This document shows, piece after piece, positions 18,404 to 42,876 of a stretch of 64,000 nt of DNA. The translations under genes were made by a program, and so were the position numbers. The DNA is from a virus (Duplodnaviria > Caudoviricetes), in the IMG/VR virus record IMGVR_UViG_3300025889_000070; one strand, 5' to 3'. The notes under the pieces were generated by a model. The model had not been told where the DNA came from. It ran no database searches and saw nothing but the letters and a program-made list of their open reading frames with translations. The first letter of the stretch is position 1; each line of letters begins with the position of its first letter.

Positions 18404-18885
18404 TGTTTGACTTTAGTTTTAATTCTACGATATTACTTTTTATATGGACAGCAGCAGGTATTGTCTGCTTAATACCTATGTTACTCAAGGAGACATGGAA
18501 AAAGTATTTGATTGTACCTACTGTATTCTTTGCCGTGTATGCTAGCTTTATTACAAACAAAGAATTTTTAGGCACACCACTGTACCAACTTCCAGAAGGA
18601 GAATTTGTTTACCTAGGTCATAGAATAACTACAGAAAATAAAAAGAAATACATTACACTATGGGCTATTGTTGATAACAAGGAAAGACTATATTACTTTG
18701 CTAGTAACAATCAACAACAAAAAGAATTATCCAAAAGTAGAACACGTAGCAGTAATGGTCTAGTTCAGCTAGGCAAATTTAAACCTAAAAAACCTATTAA
18801 TAATGTGGAAGATACAAAATTTGCTGAACTACAAACCTATGACTTTCCGTTTCAGGAAAAATTTCCTAAAAATCCAGTTGACTAA
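18403..18885 (+). CDS. membrane protein (2 N-terminal TM helices)
   Basis: Hydrophobic N-terminus; translationally coupled to the upstream gene. Confidence 0.55.
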   Translation: MFDFSFNSTILLFIWTAAGIVCLIPMLLKETWKKYLIVPTVFFAVYASFITNKEFLGTPLYQLPEGEFVYLGHRITTENKKKYITLWAIVDNKERLYYFASNNQQQKELSKSRTRSSNGLVQLGKFKPKKPINNVEDTKFAELQTYDFPFQEKFPKNPVD

Positions 18886-32835: not shown

Positions 32836-33908
32836 ACACCATTTATATTATATGTCTGGAGCCTATTGATCAGAGATATACTAAACAGTGGTTTACAAAC
32901 ATTCCCAGTATACTGGAACAGCGTATCCAGGAACAGGGCTTAGATTATCGTGTAGTTACTATTGAAGGTGACACAGTGCCTGATAATACTACAGCAGGTG
33001 CGTTTTTGGACTTTGGTGCTACAAACGTCTACAAAGCAAGCCAGACTGTAACTGTTAGCAAGATGTTTAGTCAGGGAGACATCAAGCCTGGTGATAAGTT
33101 TTTAGTTACAGATGCCTGGAACTTTATTATTACACCTATCAAATACATGAGTGACCTGCTGGACATTCCAGTAGAAATACACAGCATCTGGCATGCTGGG
33201 GCATATGATCCCAGTGACATCCTGGGTTACAAAATGAACAAGCCATGGCCCTGGGATGCTGAGCGTAGTTGGTTTTATAGCAGTGACTATAACTACTATG
33301 CCAGTGAAAATCATCGTAAAATGTTTTTAACTAACTTAAACATACCAGAAGAATATCATCACAAAGCAGTGCGAAGTGGCCAGCCACACGAATTGATAAT
33401 CGATGATCTTGTTAGGCATCAGAATACAGACAAACAAGATCGTGTTATGTGGCCACATCGTTACAATGCTGACAAGCAACCAGCGATCGCAGAAGATCTT
33501 GCTGCCAACTTTGACATGGTTATTACTCAGAAAATGAACTTGAACAAAGCAGATTACTATGCTACAATGGGCACAAGTAAACTTATTTTTAGTTGTGCAC
33601 TACATGAGAACCTTGGCATCAGTGTCATGGAAGCAGTGCTAACTGGAGCAGTTCCAGTGGTGCCGGATCGTTGTAGTTACAGTGAAATGTATTTAGATGA
33701 ATTTAAATATCCCAGTGAGTGGACAGAGGATCTGGAAAGTTATCAGAAAAATAAACACAGGGTAGCAGAGTTTATTCAGGATAAACTGGATAACTACTCT
33801 AATTATCATAATCTTATTCGTGAGCAACAGAGTATTCTCGTACGAGATTATTTAAGCAGCAATATTATGATGGACAAATTATTAGAAAAAAAGGAACTTA
33901 GTGCATGA
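32832..33908 (+). CDS. GT-B fold glycosyltransferase (GT4-like)
   Basis: MWPHRYNADKQP..SCALHENLGISVMEAVLTGAVPVVPDRCSYSE (Ex7E motif). Confidence 0.75.
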   Translation: MNTIYIICLEPIDQRYTKQWFTNIPSILEQRIQEQGLDYRVVTIEGDTVPDNTTAGAFLDFGATNVYKASQTVTVSKMFSQGDIKPGDKFLVTDAWNFIITPIKYMSDLLDIPVEIHSIWHAGAYDPSDILGYKMNKPWPWDAERSWFYSSDYNYYASENHRKMFLTNLNIPEEYHHKAVRSGQPHELIIDDLVRHQNTDKQDRVMWPHRYNADKQPAIAEDLAANFDMVITQKMNLNKADYYATMGTSKLIFSCALHENLGISVMEAVLTGAVPVVPDRCSYSEMYLDEFKYPSEWTEDLESYQKNKHRVAEFIQDKLDNYSNYHNLIREQQSILVRDYLSSNIMMDKLLEKKELSA

Positions 33909-34594
33909 GAAATACTTCCGAACAAATTATAGAACGTATAAAACAGTCCAATGGCCGTTACTGGGCTGGAGATAATATTAGTGAATATCTAGGGCCAGGT
34001 GACAAAGAAGCACTTATTGAAGAACTTACTGTTAAGTTTGAAAGTGTACTGGATAGTTTGGTGATCGATCGTCACACTGATCCAAACAGTCAGGATACTG
34101 GCAGACGTTTGGCCAAGATGTACATTCGAGAGATAATGAGTGGTCGTTACAATCCTAAACCTAACGCAACAGCATTTCCTAATCATACAAATGAGCGATA
34201 TGATGGTATGCTAGTCGTGCGTAGTGAACTTAAAAGTATGTGTTCACACCACCATCAACCAGTCACTGGTGTAGCATACATTGGAATTATTGCTGCTGAT
34301 ACTCTCATTGGTTTAAGTAAATATACACGAATAGCACAATGGTGTGCTCGCCGTGGAACTCTACAAGAAGAACTTGCCATGGATATTGCCCGAGAAATTC
34401 AGGCAGCAACTGGCAGTAATGATGTTGGCGTATATATTCAGGCTACACATGGTTGTTGTGAAAATCGCGGCATAGGTGCTCATAGTAGCCTAACACAAAC
34501 TACAGTTTTGCGTGGCAGTTTCCACAATGATCCTGCTTGCAAGAAAGAGTTTATGGATAACATTAAACTACAACAAGGATTTGCTCCAAGATGA
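33905..34594 (+). CDS. folE: GTP cyclohydrolase I
   Basis: DTGRRLAKMY, SMCSHHHQP, GLSKYTR, LQEEL, HGCCENRG. Confidence 0.95.
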   Translation: MRNTSEQIIERIKQSNGRYWAGDNISEYLGPGDKEALIEELTVKFESVLDSLVIDRHTDPNSQDTGRRLAKMYIREIMSGRYNPKPNATAFPNHTNERYDGMLVVRSELKSMCSHHHQPVTGVAYIGIIAADTLIGLSKYTRIAQWCARRGTLQEELAMDIAREIQAATGSNDVGVYIQATHGCCENRGIGAHSSLTQTTVLRGSFHNDPACKKEFMDNIKLQQGFAPR

Positions 34595-35301
34595 TACTGT
34601 TATTTGATGTAGACGGTACTCTTACTCCGAGCAGGGGAGAAATGAATCTTGAGTTTGCTAATAAGTTTCTCAAGTTAAAAAACTTTAGTTTAGTCACTGG
34701 CAGTGACTGGCCAAAAACAGTGGAACAAGTTGGCACAAAAATATTTGAAGATGCTGATTATTCATTTAATTGTAGCGGCAATGATGTTTACAGCAAAGGA
34801 AAACACATAGCCAAAAATAACTGGAAACCCGGCACAGACTTACTGGATTACCTTAGCAAGTGTTTAGGGGAATCTAGTTATCCTGAAAAATATGGTAACC
34901 ATATTGAAATACGAACTGGAATGCTTAACTTTAGTATAGTAGGAAGAAATGCTATAGGTAAGCAAAGAACAGATTATTATAACTGGGACGTTCAAATGCT
35001 GGAACGTGACAGAATATGCAGAGGAATCAAATATCATTTTCCAGAACTTTGTGCTGAAGTTGGTGGTGAAACTGGTGTTGACATTTATCCAGTTGGTAAT
35101 GATAAATCCCAGTGCTTAAAATATTTTGGTGGTCGACCAATACATTTTTTTGGTGATTCTTGTCACGCCGGCGGGAATGATTATAGCATAGCAAGTATAC
35201 TGGAATCTAGATCAGATTGTAAAGTATATCATGTCAATGATTGGAAGGAAACATGGCAGATCCTAAACCAAAAATATATGAATCACCTGATGGTGGATTA
35301 A
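34591..35301 (+). CDS. HAD-IIB phosphomannomutase (eukaryote-type PMM)
   Basis: FDVDGTLT, VTGSD, EIRTGMLNFSIVGR, GGETGVDIYP, FFGD..GGNDY. Confidence 0.85.
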   Translation: MILLFDVDGTLTPSRGEMNLEFANKFLKLKNFSLVTGSDWPKTVEQVGTKIFEDADYSFNCSGNDVYSKGKHIAKNNWKPGTDLLDYLSKCLGESSYPEKYGNHIEIRTGMLNFSIVGRNAIGKQRTDYYNWDVQMLERDRICRGIKYHFPELCAEVGGETGVDIYPVGNDKSQCLKYFGGRPIHFFGDSCHAGGNDYSIASILESRSDCKVYHVNDWKETWQILNQKYMNHLMVD

Positions 35302-35595: not shown

Positions 35596-35623
35596 TTGAC
35601 GTTCGACAACCTCATGCTATCAT
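35596..35623 (+). promoter_or_regulatory. sigma70-type promoter TTGACG..TGC-TATCAT
   Basis: Intergenic, upstream of the autotransporter; extended -10. Confidence 0.6.
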
Positions 35624-35664
35624 AATATTATGCAATGGTGCATATTTGATAAATGAGGTAAAAA

Positions 35665-38600
35665 ATGAACAAAGCATATATTGGTGCTTTGCTTGCTTCA
35701 ACTGCTCTGCTCAGTGCTTGTGTTCCTGGAAGTGGAACTCTAAGCTCTGCTGCAAGTACTGTAAAGTCTGCGTTTAACGCTAACAACGCTTTTGCTGTTA
35801 TTAGTGGGCAAATCTCAGAACTTGAAAATGTAGTTGCGGTGGCGCAAAGCAGCGCAAGCCTAAGCGCATTGGTCAATCCAACTAATGAAGACAGGACCAA
35901 TGCTGCCAACGTCGTTAGCAAGATTGATGCTGTTATCCGTGGCTGGGAAGATCATAAAGCCAACATGGATCCTAATCTACTTGCCGTTAAACTTAGTACA
36001 GCAGAATGGCGGCAAGCAGAAGCTGTTGTAAAACTACTCAAGGATGATCTCCGTCCCGTAGTTGACCGTGTAGTTCAGGGCGGCAACTATGATACCAAAG
36101 ACTTTGAATTCCTCGCAAAGAAGGAATCACTTGAACAAAAGATTAATGAAAAGAAGGCTGCCATTTTTGAAGCAGCCCAGCCCACTGTTATTAGCGCAAC
36201 TACCAGTGCAGTAACAGTAAACACTGGAGCGTCGTCCATGTCTCCTGAACGTGTCAAAAGCACTGAAGTTGTAGACGGTACACAAACGGTAACAGGTGGT
36301 AGTAGCATAAGCGATCTAACTCGTACAGCAACCTGGACCAGGACAACTACTCTGAGCATGGAGTATGATCGTACCTGGACTGTTGATGTACAGGATGTTA
36401 CTACAACTGTTTTCAGTAATGGTACTACATCTGAATCTCGTGGTACAGTTCGCAGCATTACAAACACTCAGACGTTTGATGCTCAACCACAGGTTAGCAG
36501 CCAGGAGATGACGCAAAACATTGGTTATACTGTTACAGAGCAGAATACACCAACTGTTAGTGTTACTAATGGAGAACCCACTGTTGTTGCTGAACACGTA
36601 GATAGGGTTGAACAAACAACTCAGGAAAATGGAAGTATTTTACATACTACTATTAGGACTACTACAACTACTACTACCACTCCTGTGACAACTACTACAA
36701 CTTATCCAAAAATTAGTGTCTACAACTATGAAGATGGACACTCTTTTACACACGATGCTACTGATGAAGTTTTGAGTAGCACAGTGGATGATGTTGTTGT
36801 TGCTACCAGTGAGGCTGTCGTAGAAACTATTACTGAGCATGTTGTAACAACAGAAACTACTACTAATGAAGTTGTTACACAGGTTACAGAAGGTAATCCA
36901 GTATTTGTTACTACACACGAAGATGTTACTACTACAAATACTGTAAACGGCGTAACTACTACTACAGTTACTCGTAACTATACTACAACTGCTACAGTGA
37001 CAACTACTACCACGACAAGTACTACCCCTGTAACTGTTAAAGTGTGGACAGACGGTAAACAAGAAACTATTCGTGGCGAAACTGTTGTAACAACGGAAAC
37101 CAGTGAAAGTGTAGTAACTGACCAGTGGGCAAAAGTAATGGAACAAACCACTACTGATGCTGTTGCGGAAGAAACTACAGAGTCAGCAGGAAGTGTTAAT
37201 CTTGCTGACCTAGGAACCCCAACGCCTGGAATGAGCAGCAATCCAGCAGACTTTAAGACCAATGAGTTTACCCTTGGTGCTACTGGTGGCTGGACTGACA
37301 ACAAAAGCATTATCAAGGCTGATGTTGCTTATAGTCGTGGTTGGACTGGTAAAGGTAGTTTGATTACCATTGCTGACACTGGCTATAATACCACGCACAC
37401 TGACTTAGAAGCAAAACACACTTTTAATACTATCACCGGTGATTCGACTAACATGGAAGATAATGTTGGACACGGATCACATGTTATGGGTATTGCAGCT
37501 GGCCGTAGAAACGGAACTGGTATGCATGGTGTAGCATTTGATGCTGATGTTGCTGTAGTTAAAGTAACAGATACCACAGGTTACAGTTTCGCTCGTGCTA
37601 GAACTGGCGCGACTTGGGCTGCTAACCTAGGCAGTGTTGCTTACAACGTAAGTGCTAACTATAGCTCAGACAGTGCTTTGCGTAGCAGTATTGTAGCAAC
37701 AGGTGATGGCACCTATAAGTCCACGCACTATTACTACGGTGTTAATGGCTATAATGGTGTACTACAAGAAGCCCAATTATGGAAAACCGCACTGGGTACT
37801 GAACAGATCCTAGTAAACAGTGCCGGCAACCAGACCAGCGATGTTGTATTTGGAACAGGACAAATGGCAACTGCTACAGAAAATGGTCAGCTTATCCTAG
37901 GCGGACGAATGCTGGTAGTTGGCAACTGGGACCAGAATAACAACGTTGTTCAGGGTGCAAAAGCTGGTCATCTTTGTACCACATACGATGAAGCAGCAGC
38001 AACTTGTAAAGACGCTGCTAGCATGCGGGACTTTTACATTCTTGCTCCAGGCATGAGTGTTAAGAGTGCTAACAAAGGAGATCCAAACGCTATCGTAGAC
38101 ATGAGTGGTACTAGTATGGCAGCACCACAGGTTACTGGCGCACTTGCTATTCTTAACCAAATGTGGCCACACATGAAAGGTGAAAACCTTGTCAAGTTGG
38201 TAACTACTACTGCCAGCAAGGACTTGCCTGGATACAATCCAGGTGTACACGGCAGCGGTTTGCTGGATTTGGATCGTGCTACACAGCCTGTAGGTGCTAC
38301 TGGTATCCCAACAAGTGGTCGTACCAGTGGCGCTATCGCAAGCCTGAGCACACTAAGCGGTGGTGCCCTAGTTGGCTCAATTAGCAGTGAAGCATTTGCT
38401 CCGCTTGCAAATGTTATGGTACTAGACAGCTTTGAGCGTGATTACACTATTGACCTTAGTGAAGCACAAAAGGTTGATACACGCCCAGGTAGCTATGTAG
38501 AATCTCTAGCATTTGGCAACGGCGACTACGACGCTTATGGAAACCTTGCCAGCAGTAATGCTAATCTTGCACTACCAAACATGCTAGGCTATACTGGTAA

Positions 38601-39231
38601 TATTAAAATCAACGAGAACGCAACTGGCGACTATGCATTTAGTGTTGGTTACAATCTTGTTGATGATAAGGATACCAAAGTAGATTTTGGTTTGGGCTTT
38701 GTCAAAGAAACAGGTAAGTTTCTTAACAACGTTCAGCAGGGCTTCATGGGAGTTGGTGAAAATCACACCACAAACTATGCCAGCCTAAAGATTAAACACA
38801 ACTTCAATGATACAGTGTTTGGGTTTGGTAATCTCCAGCTGGGTATGACAGATGTTGAATCCAGCAAGGATTTTAGCCTAGTTACAGGATACAGCAATCT
38901 AGTAAGTCGCAGTTTTGCTGTAGGCGCTGGGGTAAAGCCTGCTCAAGGCTGGAAACTCGGGGCTACATATAGTCAGCCACTAAATATCATGAGTGGCAAA
39001 ATGAACTACAAAGTTCCTGTAGCCAGAACCTTGGATGGTCAAGTTCAGTTTAATGAAGGAAGTGCTGATGCAAGCACAAAAGTTATTGAACATGACCTGG
39101 GTCTTTTTGTACAATATAAGATGGATGAAAACTTTAGCTTTGCTGGCTATGGTGAACACAGAATAAACGTTGCCGGTACAAAAGGAAACAGCCAGACTAA
39201 CGTAGGTGTAAAATTTAACTGGCAGTTCTAA
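35665..39231 (+). CDS. lipoprotein S8 subtilisin-like serine protease autotransporter with Thr-rich stalk
   Basis: Lipobox LSAC (Cys19); triad IADTG / GHGSHVMG / GTSMAAP; C-terminal amphipathic beta-strands ending VKFNWQF. Confidence 0.85.
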   Translation: MNKAYIGALLASTALLSACVPGSGTLSSAASTVKSAFNANNAFAVISGQISELENVVAVAQSSASLSALVNPTNEDRTNAANVVSKIDAVIRGWEDHKANMDPNLLAVKLSTAEWRQAEAVVKLLKDDLRPVVDRVVQGGNYDTKDFEFLAKKESLEQKINEKKAAIFEAAQPTVISATTSAVTVNTGASSMSPERVKSTEVVDGTQTVTGGSSISDLTRTATWTRTTTLSMEYDRTWTVDVQDVTTTVFSNGTTSESRGTVRSITNTQTFDAQPQVSSQEMTQNIGYTVTEQNTPTVSVTNGEPTVVAEHVDRVEQTTQENGSILHTTIRTTTTTTTTPVTTTTTYPKISVYNYEDGHSFTHDATDEVLSSTVDDVVVATSEAVVETITEHVVTTETTTNEVVTQVTEGNPVFVTTHEDVTTTNTVNGVTTTTVTRNYTTTATVTTTTTTSTTPVTVKVWTDGKQETIRGETVVTTETSESVVTDQWAKVMEQTTTDAVAEETTESAGSVNLADLGTPTPGMSSNPADFKTNEFTLGATGGWTDNKSIIKADVAYSRGWTGKGSLITIADTGYNTTHTDLEAKHTFNTITGDSTNMEDNVGHGSHVMGIAAGRRNGTGMHGVAFDADVAVVKVTDTTGYSFARARTGATWAANLGSVAYNVSANYSSDSALRSSIVATGDGTYKSTHYYYGVNGYNGVLQEAQLWKTALGTEQILVNSAGNQTSDVVFGTGQMATATENGQLILGGRMLVVGNWDQNNNVVQGAKAGHLCTTYDEAAATCKDAASMRDFYILAPGMSVKSANKGDPNAIVDMSGTSMAAPQVTGALAILNQMWPHMKGENLVKLVTTTASKDLPGYNPGVHGSGLLDLDRATQPVGATGIPTSGRTSGAIASLSTLSGGALVGSISSEAFAPLANVMVLDSFERDYTIDLSEAQKVDTRPGSYVESLAFGNGDYDAYGNLASSNANLALPNMLGYTGNIKINENATGDYAFSVGYNLVDDKDTKVDFGLGFVKETGKFLNNVQQGFMGVGENHTTNYASLKIKHNFNDTVFGFGNLQLGMTDVESSKDFSLVTGYSNLVSRSFAVGAGVKPAQGWKLGATYSQPLNIMSGKMNYKVPVARTLDGQVQFNEGSADASTKVIEHDLGLFVQYKMDENFSFAGYGEHRINVAGTKGNSQTNVGVKFNWQF

Positions 39232-39241
39232 GGAGGAAGAA

Positions 39242-39724
39242 ATGCAACTAGTGCAGATCACATTAGAAAACTATAAGAAACTTAAATTTAATATCGATGA
39301 TGATCCAGTACGGCCTGAGCTAACTTTAGACTTTAGACTAGCACCAGGGCGTGAGATTTGGGCACTAGTTGCAGATGACGAATACAAGGCGGCGGTCTGT
39401 GTGGCATACTGCAACGAAGTACCTATTACTGTAAAAGAACTTGATTATTACAGTCAAGCAGCGCATCAAGACGATCAACATGGTAATATTGCAATCGCAT
39501 ACACAGTTTGGACCAAGCAACCTGGTGCTGGAAGAAAACTAATATTGGACATGATAAAACTATTAGAACAACAACGTGTCCTGCGCCTAGTAACTCTAAG
39601 TCCAAAAACAGCAATGGCGAGAAAATTCCATTTAAGAAATGGCGCCTTTATTTTTCAATTAAATACTGAGACAGACAACTATGAATATAAACTTTATCAA
39701 GAACAGGAAACGAGTAATACTTGA
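39242..39724 (+). CDS. hypothetical protein, possible GNAT-like fold
   Basis: YTVW..QPGAGRKLI..LVTLSPKTAMARKFHLRNGA. Confidence 0.45.
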   Translation: MQLVQITLENYKKLKFNIDDDPVRPELTLDFRLAPGREIWALVADDEYKAAVCVAYCNEVPITVKELDYYSQAAHQDDQHGNIAIAYTVWTKQPGAGRKLILDMIKLLEQQRVLRLVTLSPKTAMARKFHLRNGAFIFQLNTETDNYEYKLYQEQETSNT

Positions 39725-40124
39725 CAGACTGGGAAACAACCCTTATCTTGTTAGATACTACTTGTTCCTTAAAGATAGAAAATGGTTTCCATTCAATATT
39801 TTCCTACACAAGTTTCTAAGCAGTGACCCAGATGAACTACATGACCATCCCTGGCCCTACTTTACACTTATACTACGCGGCGGATACTGGGAAACAACAC
39901 CAAATGGCAGATTTTGGAGACAGCCTGGGCATTTTAGGTTTTGTAAACCAAAAGATTTACATCGCATTGAACTAGAGCCTGATATTACCGCCTGGACTCT
40001 TTTTATTCCTGGCCCAAAACTTAGAGAATGGGGTTTTATAGTAAACGGAAAGTGGATGCATAACGAGCAATATTTTGCTTGGAGAAAACAAAAGGTAAAA
40101 AATGAAAAAGTTGTATCTTTCTAA
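39681..40124 (+). CDS. cupin-fold protein
   Basis: LHDHPWPYFTLILRGGYWE..LHRIEL..WTLFIPGP. Confidence 0.7.
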   Translation: MNINFIKNRKRVILDRLGNNPYLVRYYLFLKDRKWFPFNIFLHKFLSSDPDELHDHPWPYFTLILRGGYWETTPNGRFWRQPGHFRFCKPKDLHRIELEPDITAWTLFIPGPKLREWGFIVNGKWMHNEQYFAWRKQKVKNEKVVSF

Positions 40125-40635
40125 TAAACAGATTAAAAAAAGCATACACGATATTGTTTCACAAATGTATGCTGATAACTGGCGACCTGACTACATTGTA
40201 GGTATTACTCGTGGCGGTCTTGTCCCCGCTGTTCTTATGAGCCATCTAACAGGTATTAAGATGCATACCCTTGATGTTAGATTACGTGATGCCGCTGGCG
40301 AAAATGAATCCAACTACTGGATGGCAGAGGATGCTTTTGGCAACCATAGAACTGATGATCTACCAAGTTATAGCAATCCGCATCTTAGGAAAAATATTTT
40401 AATCTTGGATGATATCAATGATAGCGGAGCAACTCTTGAATGGATCAAAAACGATTGGCCCAGCGGATGCTTGCCAAATGATCCTGCTTGGAATGATGTT
40501 TGGCACAATAATGTTCGTTTCGCGACCATTGTAAATAATCTATCAAGTCCCTTTGAAGTTGATTATTCCTGTATCGAAATAAACAAAGCGGAAGAAGATG
40601 TTTGGGTAGTTTTTCCCTATGAGGAATGGTGGTAA
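40102..40635 (+). CDS. type I phosphoribosyltransferase (xanthine/guanine PRT-like)
   Basis: VGITRGGLVPA, PRPP loop ILILDDINDSGATL, WVVFPYE. Confidence 0.85.
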   Translation: MKKLYLSNKQIKKSIHDIVSQMYADNWRPDYIVGITRGGLVPAVLMSHLTGIKMHTLDVRLRDAAGENESNYWMAEDAFGNHRTDDLPSYSNPHLRKNILILDDINDSGATLEWIKNDWPSGCLPNDPAWNDVWHNNVRFATIVNNLSSPFEVDYSCIEINKAEEDVWVVFPYEEWW

Positions 40636-41204
40636 TGCTGTTTACAGAATACAAAAATTGGATATCTGATAAGGAACACATTGATATTTTAAGTAAAATT
40701 GTATACGCACCAAAGTGGCGTTTTGGCCAAGTAAGTGATGATCAAATTGAACCAAACTATCCAATGTGGTTCCAGGGATTTTATCACGTGCACAAACATG
40801 AATTTAAGGACGATTGTCCTGATATTGCTAAAACTTTAACGGAACGGTTTTTGGACCTAGCACCCGACAACTATATGTTGGTTAGAAGCATGGCTAGTAG
40901 TAATACGTTTGGTCAGGACGGAGACTTTCACACAGATTGGCCAGTATTTGGGCAAAGCATTACTGGTGTACTTTATACTGATAAAGTATGGGAAACAAAC
41001 TGGGGCGGTGAAACCTTGTTTAAAGGAGATCAGGTTTTAGAAGCAAGTGAGTATGAGCCTTGTAAACTTGTTACTTTTGATAGTAGCATTCCGCACATTG
41101 GTAAAGGTCCCCAACGTAGGTGCAAGGAAATGCGTAGCATACTAGCATTCCAAGCAGTGGAAGCCGATGCTCTCAGAGAAAGAATGAATAAAAAACTTGA
41201 CTAA
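40635..41204 (+). CDS. 2OG-Fe(II) oxygenase
   Basis: FHTD (HxD), WGGETLF, VTFDSSIPHIG, R.ILAF. Confidence 0.8.
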   Translation: MLFTEYKNWISDKEHIDILSKIVYAPKWRFGQVSDDQIEPNYPMWFQGFYHVHKHEFKDDCPDIAKTLTERFLDLAPDNYMLVRSMASSNTFGQDGDFHTDWPVFGQSITGVLYTDKVWETNWGGETLFKGDQVLEASEYEPCKLVTFDSSIPHIGKGPQRRCKEMRSILAFQAVEADALRERMNKKLD

Positions 41205-41225
41205 ATAGAAAGTACTTGTTATTAT
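41197..41225 (+). promoter_or_regulatory. sigma70-type promoter TTGACT-N17-TATTAT
   Basis: Upstream of the queD leader. Confidence 0.7.
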
Positions 41226-41231
41226 AATAAT

Positions 41232-41297
41232 AAGAGGACTTAGTGTTCGTTCCCTCTTTAAATATTCCGCGCACTCCATAACCAAGGAGTATAAATT
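41232..41297 (+). promoter_or_regulatory. structured 5' leader of queD (candidate riboswitch-like element)
   Basis: Stem AAGAGG/CCTCTT; loop AGTG complementary to downstream CACT; ACTCC/GGAGT hairpin covers the SD. Confidence 0.45.
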
Positions 41298-41777
41298 ATG
41301 GCAAAATATATTAGTACTAAAACATATAGACACTTAGGTCCAGTAGCATACAGGCAGTGGAGAGCAGACAGTCATTGTAATTTAATTCATGGATACGCAT
41401 TAAGTTTCCATTTTGAATTTGAATGCGACACACTGGATGCTAGAAACTGGTGCATGGACTTTGGTGGTTTGAAGCCACTAAAACAAAACCTAGAAGATTG
41501 GTTTGATCATACGCTATTAGTAGCACAAGACGATCCAGACCGAGAAACATTGTTAGATCTTGGTAAAAAAGGATTAGCAAAGATCACAGAAGTTGAAAAA
41601 ACTGGCTGCGAGGGTCTAGCAGACTTCCTTTATGAATACGTAAATACTATTTTCTTACCCAACTATGGCAAAGCAGAAGCAGAACGTATCTGGTGCTGTA
41701 AAGTTGAGGTAAGGGAAACCGACTCAAATATGGCTATGCGTGTCGGGCATAGAGAAGATGGAGAATTCGATGTTTAA
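41298..41777 (+). CDS. queD: 6-carboxy-5,6,7,8-tetrahydropterin synthase
   Basis: HCNLIHGY, MDFGGLKPLK, FDHTLL, EGLA, VRET.SN.A. Confidence 0.9.
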   Translation: MAKYISTKTYRHLGPVAYRQWRADSHCNLIHGYALSFHFEFECDTLDARNWCMDFGGLKPLKQNLEDWFDHTLLVAQDDPDRETLLDLGKKGLAKITEVEKTGCEGLADFLYEYVNTIFLPNYGKAEAERIWCCKVEVRETDSNMAMRVGHREDGEFDV

Positions 41778-41985
41778 AACTTTTTGGAACTTTATTTCTG
41801 GTTTAGGCAGTGTTGAAGACATTGTAAAGACAGCTACAGTAACAGAAGCAGAACTTAAAAAGATGACCAAAAAAGAAATTGATGACTGGGCTGCTAGTTC
41901 AGGCGTTACACTTGATCGTCGTCTTACAAAAGATAAGATGATTGCTGAACTTAAAACACACACATCTAAAGTTAACATTACATAA
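41770..41985 (+). CDS. small hypothetical protein (possible Rho-N/SAP-like helical C-terminus)
   Basis: LKKMTKKEIDDWA..LDRRLTKDKMIAEL; GGAG SD. Confidence 0.5.
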   Translation: MFKTFWNFISGLGSVEDIVKTATVTEAELKKMTKKEIDDWAASSGVTLDRRLTKDKMIAELKTHTSKVNIT

Positions 41986-41994
41986 GAGGCATTA

Positions 41995-42876
41995 ATGAAA
42001 ATAAGATACACTGAAGCGTTTTATAGTGTACAAGGCGAAGGAAGGTTTGTTGGAGTTCCCAGCGTTTTCTTGCGTATGTACGGTTGTAATTTTACATGTC
42101 CAAAGTTTGGGCTAGCAAGGGATGCAGATACAAGTCAGACTGATAAAAAGTTAGCGGACATTGTTTACGAAACAACCAAGGTGTTTCCTGAAAAATATGA
42201 TAGTGTAGATAAACTCCCACTTATTGAAACAGGCTGTGACAGTTATGCCGCTTGGCATCCTGCTTTTAAACATCTACAGAATGACGTAGACTTGGACACA
42301 CTTGTAGATAGACTGCTAGCACTAACACCCACTGGATCATGGACACAGGAAAATGGTCAAGACATACACTTGGTTATCACAGGTGGTGAACCTTTGTTGG
42401 GTTGGCAGCGTGTGTATACAGAACTATTTGAACATCCAAAAATGAAGGATCTTAAAAATGTCACTTTTGAAACTAACACCACACAGCCTTTGCAGGACAA
42501 TTTCCAGTCTTACCTCAACAATAACCAACAACTACATGTTACATGGTCATGTTCCCCGAAGCTATCGGTTAGTGGACATGCTTGGGATGATGCTATACAG
42601 CCTAGTATTGCTAGGAGTTACAGTGACATTCGTGATAGCTACCTATATTTCAAGTTTGTTGTATGTGATGATGTTGATGTGGAAGAAGTTGACCGAGCTG
42701 TGGCGGAATTTAGAGCTGCCGGTATTACTGCGCCGGTTTATGTCATGGCTGTCGGAGGTACAACAACAAGTTACTTTGCTAACGGCAAAACTGTGGCGGA
42801 ACTTGCTCTTAAAAAAGGCTATTGTTATTCGCCCAGGCTTCATGTCGACGTTTTTGGCAATGCCTGGGGAACGTAA
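41995..42876 (+). CDS. queE: 7-carboxy-7-deazaguanine synthase (radical SAM)
   Basis: FYSVQGEGRFVGVPSVFLRMYGCNFTC..GCDS, VITGGEPLL, FETN, SPKL, SPRLH. Confidence 0.93.
   Translation: MKIRYTEAFYSVQGEGRFVGVPSVFLRMYGCNFTCPKFGLARDADTSQTDKKLADIVYETTKVFPEKYDSVDKLPLIETGCDSYAAWHPAFKHLQNDVDLDTLVDRLLALTPTGSWTQENGQDIHLVITGGEPLLGWQRVYTELFEHPKMKDLKNVTFETNTTQPLQDNFQSYLNNNQQLHVTWSCSPKLSVSGHAWDDAIQPSIARSYSDIRDSYLYFKFVVCDDVDVEEVDRAVAEFRAAGITAPVYVMAVGGTTTSYFANGKTVAELALKKGYCYSPRLHVDVFGNAWGT

Follow-up and report, generated by a model that had tools for sequence, protein, structure and literature searches.

What use could a tailed phage have for a protein that combines a lipoprotein signal, a protease domain and an outer-membrane beta-barrel? 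The question is raised by a 64,000-nucleotide stretch of viral DNA (Duplodnaviria; Caudoviricetes; IMG/VR record IMGVR_UViG_3300025889_000070), referred to here as the window, in which the open reading frame (ORF) at 35665..39231 on the + strand translates into a protein of 1188 aa (P0001) with these three parts. There is good support for export of this protein, for its probable lipidation and for its barrel being a substrate of the beta-barrel assembly machinery (BAM). That it acts as a lipid-anchored, predicted-active protease of the subtilisin type, residing in the outer membrane of a Gram-negative host and displayed on the cell surface, is an answer to which we give a little better than an even chance. 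What the original prediction had observed in this gene is confirmed, and its interpretation of the product as a surface-displayed subtilisin autotransporter is partly supported. The parts of the protein are as follows.

35665..35721 (+): lipoprotein signal peptide, aa 1-19, with the lipobox LSAC and Val at +2 (from the translation)
35737..36174 (+): predicted N-terminal helical bundle, aa ~25-170 (AlphaFold2 [AF2] model)
36205..37224 (+): Thr/Val-rich stalk, aa 181-520, with about three tandem beta-rich repeats of ~105 aa (composition, self-comparison, AF2)
37297..38289 (+): Peptidase S8 (subtilase) domain, aa ~545-875 (Pfam, alignments with subtilisins from PDB)
37375-37377 (+): predicted catalytic D571, in the motif ADTG (subtilisin alignment)
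37471-37473 (+): predicted catalytic H603, in the motif GHGSH (subtilisin alignment)
37828-37830 (+): predicted oxyanion residue N722, in the motif AGN (subtilisin alignment)
38113-38115 (+): predicted catalytic S817, in the motif GTSMAAP (subtilisin alignment)
38290..38559 (+): conserved linker, aa 876-965, with the motifs ATQPVGATGIPTSGRT and VMVLDSFERD (invariant columns of alignments A1 and A3)
38560..39231 (+): predicted outer-membrane beta-barrel of ~12 strands, aa ~966-1188, ending in KFNWQF, plus the stop codon (AF2, fold matches)

The protease domain is the part most readily identified. Its match to PF00082 covers residues 562-852 (E 1.2e-26; 94.1 bits against a curated cut-off of 21.8), and comparison with PDB sequences aligns the triad, in the order D-H-S, and the oxyanion Asn with the corresponding subtilisin motifs. 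D571, H603, N722 and S817 are invariant in an alignment of 20 homologues (A3), as are the Cys771/Cys781 pair and Cys19 of the lipobox. With its catalytic residues intact, the S8 domain is apparently an active protease, and long-term purifying selection on the subtilase is well supported. More specific assignments were not obtained: NCBIfam yielded only sub-threshold matches to mycosin and EprS, and PHROGs returned phrog_3677, 'protease', and nothing narrower.

The AF2 model of the linker and barrel (predicted local distance difference test [pLDDT] 86.9; predicted template modelling score [pTM] 0.82) is all antiparallel beta in the barrel, with 12 main antiparallel strands counted from its DSSP string. 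Fold comparisons with Foldseek and VIA matched this barrel exclusively to outer-membrane barrels (Z 10-12.6), namely OmpG, Vibrio cholerae OmpT, CymA, FapF, NanC, KdgM, EspP, AIDA-I, NalP and Hbp. The best target-normalised TM-scores in Foldseek went to the 12-strand barrels of NanC and FapF, and the longest aligned span, linker included, to the translocators EspP, AIDA-I, NalP, Hbp and AaaA, with scores not above those of the porins; the autotransporter chains align with the model from its residues 15-60 onward. The fold search was rejected as a discriminator between autotransporters and porins, as the two are not separable by score. Of 121 homologues, 120 have Phe, Tyr or Trp as their terminal residue, and in 111 it is Phe, so that the beta-barrel ending in Phe, as first proposed, is borne out by both the model and the family. 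Some phage homologues have a ~50-aa tail past the terminal aromatic residue of the barrel (P0032, 1240 aa; loci L037 and L045), which would bury the usual C-terminal BAM signal.

The linker that precedes the barrel (residues 876-965) shows the highest conservation of any non-catalytic stretch of the protein. AF2 models it with a pLDDT of 77-91 over most of its length and places it against or within the barrel domain. It is common to the phage proteins and to those of the alphaproteobacterial SAR116 group (see below) and is absent from more distant cellular relatives.

To what family does this barrel belong? Searching PDB sequences with a barrel profile gave nothing meaningful (best E 1.2), a Pfam scan of the barrels of individual members gave scattered weak matches of porin type (Toluene_X, OMP_b-brl, OprB), none of them consistent, and a search of the ESM Atlas with the barrel retrieved unnamed clusters only. 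We therefore use a profile of the linker plus barrel (A1) as the definition of an S8-linker-barrel family. Among 1.84 billion clustered sequences it matched 1,892 cluster representatives at E <= 0.001 (834 at E <= 1e-10), and in full-length matches the barrel is C-terminal. All 63 distant barrel-bearing proteins that were sampled (A5) carry S8, and their consensus retains the motifs ATxPxGxxGIPTxGR and MVLDxxxRDF. Since S8 is present in every one of these 63 proteins, the barrel appears to be a partner dedicated to the protease; the autotransporter domain PF03797, for comparison, serves many kinds of passengers. Thus S8, a linker of ~90 residues and the barrel appear to form one dedicated unit of an unnamed and undescribed family. 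Some members add further modules to this unit (three of the 63 in A5): FG-GAP/VCBS repeats accompany S8 and the barrel in phage-labelled clusters (P0097; a viral cluster of the ESM Atlas), and ankyrin repeats do so in other members.

The order of parts recalls the autotransporters NalP of Neisseria meningitidis and SphB1 of Bordetella pertussis, two lipidated enzymes whose substrates are proteins on the surface of the cell that makes them (PMC9977779). Like them, the phage protein has a lipoprotein signal, an S8 domain with an intact triad and a C-terminal outer-membrane barrel of ~12 strands with a terminal aromatic residue. Few and closely spaced cysteines, a pattern reported for autotransporter passengers, are a further point of likeness. 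With such a combination of lipoprotein, S8 and barrel, an outer-membrane protease is the natural reading, and a lipid-retained surface enzyme that trims surface proteins would be expected. The differences are equally clear. The phage protein has a helical bundle and a repeat stalk N-terminal to the protease, only ~90 residues separate the protease from the barrel, it comes from a phage lineage whereas NalP and SphB1 belong to bacterial pathogens, and its barrel is not PF03797 by hidden Markov model (HMM) or by profile-profile comparison.

The last point was followed across 116 family proteins in total. PF03797 had no match in the window protein at E <= 1, in any of 45 C-terminal domains at E <= 10, in any of the 63 distant members at E <= 0.001, or in any of eight cellular relatives at E <= 0.1. 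As a control, the HMM was run on 81 genomes from this bacterial class and matched 36, in some cases in genomes that carry the S8-linker-barrel family too, at other loci; one genome of this tally (G232), flagged as unpublished, contributes to the count only. Alignment of profiles by hhalign against 17 real PF03797 domains gave a probability of 5.5%. The likeness to NalP and SphB1 claimed for this protein from the start thus stands for the layout and falls for family membership. By these comparisons, the phage protein would combine the order of parts seen in NalP with a barrel from another, protease-dedicated family, distinct from the classical PF03797 autotransporters.

The serine protease Ssp of Serratia marcescens (PDB 8E7F), in which a 248-residue beta-helix with an autochaperone stands between the protease and the translocator (PMC9977779), shares the subtilase domain with the phage protein, which differs in having its stalk before the protease. 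Ssp was the best match in PDB for the S8 domain used as a single sequence; the alignment (E 4.9e-20) covers the N-terminal region and that of the Ser motif. A special affinity of the S8 domain to autotransporter subtilases, present with one sequence, was gone with the family profile and was rejected. Our literature search found no description of a phage-borne S8 protease or of a phage-borne outer-membrane protease.

The remaining parts of the protein lie upstream of the protease. The lipobox, which the original prediction had noted, is present in 113 of 121 family proteins. The helical domain proposed next to it also holds: AF2 places helices at model residues 6-149, i.e. protein residues ~25-168. 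This bundle is found in the long homologues of the phage clade (alignment A4) and is missing from the SAR116 cellular proteins; its structural neighbours are generic helix bundles (VIA Z <= 8.3), and a feature search of the ESM Atlas with the N-terminal domain gave no match.

The stalk had been described as a long Thr/Val-rich spacer. Its composition is indeed so biased (T 29% and V 15% over residues 181-520), but it is not a simple linker: windowed self-comparison detects internal repeats at offsets of ~106-107 and ~205 residues, that is, about three beta repeats of ~105 aa. In the AF2 model the stalk consists of very long beta strands, with pLDDT 80-91 over model residues ~170-370 and 44-64 beyond. 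The model of the helical domain plus stalk had no Foldseek match among PDB folds at E <= 0.001, and in the VIA comparison of the same model the stalk part was effectively left uncovered. The number of repeats varies, from about three in the window protein to at least six in a homologue of 1524 aa (P0114), and length differences between homologues correspond in the family alignment to whole stalk blocks gained or lost. The stalk is probably an extended, rigid, beta-rich array of folded tandem repeats, as judged from the models.

The cysteine content bears on the route of export. The mature chain of 1169 residues has two Cys versus 15.8 expected from the other ORFs of the window (P about 2e-5), and 112 of the 113 lipobox-bearing family members have only two or four. 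In members with two, the residues are 8-10 apart; in those with four, the second pair is 15-49 apart. This depletion may be taken as circumstantial support for a chain that passes through a narrow pore.

In which genomes does the gene reside? A phage origin, as originally stated, is confirmed by the family-B DNA polymerase, endolysin and HNH endonuclease encoded in the window and by 49 IMG/VR contigs, up to 306 kb long, that carry the protease gene. With the polymerases of two jumbo phages, Phosso and Atu_ph07, that of the window shares 45-49% identity. Megablast of the locus against GenBank phages gave no match and tblastn of the protein one weak partial match; there is thus no cultured relative with the gene. 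Homologues are otherwise plentiful, about 30 of them at >=60% identity and of the same length, and hundreds at ~44%. The gene order S8-phosphoribosyltransferase-queD-queE is found in 41 of the 49 contigs, including the most divergent (29% identity in the barrel), and a window-like neighbourhood is seen in the metagenomic contigs L001-L004 and L060 and in L006. Because homologues are common and synteny is conserved, the protease is a gene long held by its lineage and not sporadic cargo; the description of it as unusual cargo, made before this distribution was available, has to be abandoned. The phage belongs to a lineage of large, uncultured, marine, T4-related jumbo phages that carries the gene stably.

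Upstream signals and neighbours of the gene are listed here.

35596..35623 (+): candidate sigma70-like promoter, TTGACG, 16-nt spacer and TG-extended TATCAT (consensus scan)
35655..35658 (+): putative Shine-Dalgarno sequence GAGG, 6 nt 5' of the ATG (read from the sequence)
33905-35301: FolE and phosphomannomutase, upstream of the protease gene
40102-42876: phosphoribosyltransferase, QueD and a QueE-like gene, downstream of the protease gene

The protease gene is flanked by FolE, QueD and QueE-like genes, so that it interrupts a set of 7-deazaguanine genes, a layout conserved in most of the related phages; no functional link between the protease and these genes is evident. In the eight exceptions among the IMG/VR contigs (L037-L040, L042, L045-L047) the S8-barrel gene lies away from the deazaguanine genes, next to homologues of the window ORFs at 56, 2549, 4798, 60098, 61371 and 62533, which indicates that the gene has changed its place within the genomes of related phages. 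Next to the protease gene of the window there were no genes for the uptake of peptides or amino acids.

The promoter that had been assigned to this gene is matched by a candidate at 35596-35623, in the 79-bp gap between the preceding ORF and the protease ORF, which agrees with the sigma70 consensus at 10 of 12 positions and has the extended -10 TG in addition; a promoter-like motif is kept in the relative L001 (77% identity). As a host-type promoter it has consensus-level evidence, not proof. Matches to TTGAC-N16-18-TANNAT number 12 across the window versus 3.2 expected and lie exclusively on the + (coding) strand, among them those at 18878, 22064, 23195, 26456, 31318, 35596, 41197, 44573, 49381, 51241 and 51636, several of them immediately 5' of ORFs. 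This enrichment on the coding strand suggests that host sigma70-type promoters are used by this region of the phage. The ORF downstream begins 10 nt past the protease stop codon, so that the candidate promoter of the protease probably serves several genes. This ORF (39242-39724, 160 aa) is co-conserved with the S8 gene in 30 of 49 viral loci, in some clades directly upstream of it, and its sole Pfam match, a faint one, is to the C-terminal domain of malonyl-CoA decarboxylase; its product may work together with the protease.

Which hosts are involved is suggested by the cellular relatives of the protein. A pattern scan of one genome per prokaryotic species returned three loci, of which L006 is a mis-binned phage contig, L005 is phage-like and L007 is a true chromosomal locus in a metagenome-assembled genome (MAG) of Candidatus Puniceispirillum (SAR116), with panB/panC, gcvP, gamma-glutamyltranspeptidase and a DEAD-box helicase as neighbours. 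L007 encodes a stalk-less lipoprotein with the linker motifs of the phage proteins (40-41% identity over ~616 aa). Of 192 genomes of the SAR116 order surveyed by HMM, 30 contained matches, about 15 of which are strong, full-length and in ORFs of 710-760 aa; one of the matches in this order lies at 1.49 Mb of a 2.75-Mb contig. The SAR116 cellular proteins (L007/L062, L065, L066) share with the phage protein the S8-linker-barrel unit, the motif VMVLDSFERDF and the lipobox; they differ in their length of ~680-760 aa and in the absence of the helical bundle and of the Thr-rich repeats. When sampling was widened to the class, 55 of 401 genomes had matches, which were weak and limited to the barrel proper, in proteins again of the S8 + barrel type; the S8-linker-barrel family appears to be common in Alphaproteobacteria.

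At L100 (G102:C1:1486000-1502000), on a 2.75-Mb chromosome of the SAR116 order, the cellular S8-barrel gene stands between panC with a HalD-like 2-oxoglutarate-dependent oxygenase on one side and a pair of resolvase and tyrosine-integrase genes on the other, and in another SAR116 MAG the L007 gene likewise adjoins panC/panB. The position beside panC may mark a preferred site of integration or the boundary of a mobile island.

We placed the phage and cellular proteins in a tree of 88 rows, built under LG+C20 from the stretch that spans S8, linker and barrel. Its outgroup consists of five distant proteins of Alphaproteobacteria, whose branches are long, and several of the 'phage' labels in it stand for family resemblance, not checked context. 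The window protein falls in an all-phage clade of 16 rows (Shimodaira-Hasegawa-like approximate likelihood-ratio test [SH-aLRT] 99), and the cellular proteins from SAR116 come together in a single clade (SH-aLRT 100) that branches from among the phage clades. A tree of 31 rows of verified origin has the same topology. Keeping all cellular rows together is rejected by the approximately unbiased (AU) test at p = 0.013 (31 rows, LG+G4), a value to be read with the hypothesis having been framed after the first tree and with the known false-rejection rate of this simple model. The nested SAR116 clade suggests exchange between phages and hosts. One ancient capture by the phage lineage, followed by one later transfer into SAR116, would be the most economical history; repeated capture by phages from SAR116-like hosts is the alternative. 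Because the closest cellular relatives are found there, SAR116-like Alphaproteobacteria are the probable hosts of these phages.

How, then, would such a protein work? In the model that we favour, the gene would be transcribed from its host-type (sigma70-like) promoter, and the product would be exported by Sec, lipidated at Cys19 and, with Val at +2, sorted to the outer membrane by Lol. BAM would insert the ~12-strand barrel with its terminal Phe, the linker would thread the barrel, and the protease and stalk would come to lie outside the cell, as in NalP and SphB1. The displayed enzyme would then cut proteins on or near the surface of the infected cell, and phage versions would add the helical bundle and a variable number of Thr-rich beta repeats of ~105 aa. 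The architecture, the intact catalytic residues, the fold of the barrel, the conservation, the synteny and the cellular relatives are observed; for this protein we infer lipidation, insertion into the outer membrane, surface exposure, early expression and targets. Taken by itself, a position of the protease and stalk on the cell surface appears moderately probable from the analysis as a whole.

Several observations weigh against surface display. Given that no sequence or profile link to PF03797 was found, self-translocation is not transferable from that family by homology. The AF2 model has no beta-helix or autochaperone between protease and barrel; the ~90 residues there are modelled as short strands and helices, and the helices ahead of the barrel (model residues 39-47, 75-81 and 90-93 at the DSSP level) are short only. 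In the family-profile search Ssp ranks ~24th, behind ordinary subtilisins. Furthermore, an N-terminal periplasmic domain followed by a C-terminal barrel is a common layout, as in LptD, BamA, FapF and BcsC. As for Slam-dependent (type 11) secretion of surface lipoproteins, the search for Slam (PF04575) in five SAR116-order genomes with a cellular homologue gave one sub-threshold match, on another contig, and there is no Slam gene among the neighbours of the phage copy; at L007, L100 and L101 the flanking genes have housekeeping functions or belong to mobile elements. A Slam encoded farther away may still be used.

Within the surface-display model, one role, the main idea of the original prediction, would be that of a receptor-destroying enzyme for superinfection exclusion: the protease would trim host receptors and adhesins, so that infected cells and their debris stop adsorbing sister or competing phages, and the variable stalk would set its reach above the membrane. 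NalP and SphB1, alike in layout, act on surface proteins of the cells that produce them (PMC9977779), a start of expression early in infection is suggested by the sigma70-like promoter, the long conservation across the phage lineage speaks for a function during infection, and stalk copy number differs between phage clades. Yet no feature of the sequence indicates a target, and the stalk-less homologues of the hosts show that the family serves cells in a way that has nothing to do with phages. We regard this role as a tentative possibility. Deterrence of grazers, also named in the original prediction, would be another conceivable use of a displayed protease, and the Thr-rich stalk might carry sugars added by glycosyltransferases of the phage.

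Alternatively, the barrel and lipid might do no more than hold the enzyme at the periplasmic side of the outer membrane, where a periplasm-facing protease would cut envelope proteins (tethers between outer membrane and cell wall, or porins) and thereby remodel the envelope or aid lysis, with the stalk spanning part of the periplasm. An even number of strands leaves both ends of a barrel periplasmic by default, N-terminal periplasmic domains are frequent among outer-membrane proteins, and the barrel, which also resembles porin and FadL-type barrels, has no homology to PF03797 and shows no long pore helix in its model. For a periplasmic enzyme, however, double anchoring by lipid and barrel would be redundant, the Cys depletion with short-range pairs and the variable rigid stalk would fit a surface protein better, and the sigma70-like promoter suits an early gene more than a lysis gene. 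On balance we hold a periplasmic position to be unlikely.

A second role compatible with surface display is nutrient scavenging, in which the phage gene would be an auxiliary one and its product would digest dissolved or particulate protein outside an oligotrophic host and so supply phage production with amino acids. Other auxiliary genes of marine phages boost host functions, and the phage copy could be such a boosted function, as the S8-linker-barrel unit has homologues in the SAR116 order; the intact catalytic residues and the conservation of the gene are consistent with this. It leaves the phage-specific helical domain and stalk unexplained, however, its pay-off within a single latent period is uncertain, the adjoining genes include none for peptide or amino-acid uptake, and literature linking viral S8 peptidases to auxiliary metabolism was not found, so that we consider it distinctly unlikely. 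A divergent but true classical type Va autotransporter of the NalP/SphB1 subgroup, for which the matching order of lipobox, S8, ~12-strand C-terminal barrel and terminal Phe, the VIA Z of 10.1-11.0 to the EspP, AIDA-I, NalP and Hbp translocators with the linker spanned, and Ssp as the top single-sequence match would speak, is very improbable in view of a PF03797 HMM that works in the same bacterial class and is negative in this family, the low hhalign probability, the absent beta-helix and autochaperone, porins that equal autotransporters in fold-search scores, and an Ssp affinity that the family profile does not retain.

To our knowledge, phage genes that place proteins in the outer membrane of the host are few and their products small and non-enzymatic. 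Lom and Bor of phage lambda and Llp of phage T5 are such products, made during infection or lysogeny, and Llp blocks the receptor FhuA and thereby causes superinfection exclusion; the FhuA-Llp structure (8a60) is among the Foldseek matches listed for the barrel. The phage protease would share with these proteins its predicted residence in the outer membrane of the host and would differ from them as a predicted enzyme of 1188 aa with its own BAM-type barrel and a stalk. What the present locus adds is an abundant, uncultured lineage of large marine phages that conserves an enzyme of 1,000-1,500 residues in need of the Sec, lipoprotein and BAM machineries of its host.

A more ambitious reading joins several of these threads: an unrecognised self-export module, type V-like and dedicated to a protease, would have received in phages an adjustable, rigid stalk, would have been kept for long as a receptor-destroying enzyme in widespread marine jumbo phages, and would have passed from phage to SAR116 and been domesticated there. 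Taken as a whole this is unlikely, but if true, the protein would be to bacterial viruses what neuraminidase is to influenza virus.

If the protease is displayed as we propose, it would represent a new route by which phages edit the surface of the cell they occupy, be it for receptor removal, exclusion of competitors or scavenging of protein, and its barrel would represent a protease-dedicated family outside the catalogued autotransporters. The nested SAR116 clade, an apparent case of gene flow from phage to host, would in that case provide a host prediction for phages without a cultured relative, and the stalk, variable in copy number, would be a natural experiment on the reach that the enzyme needs from the membrane.

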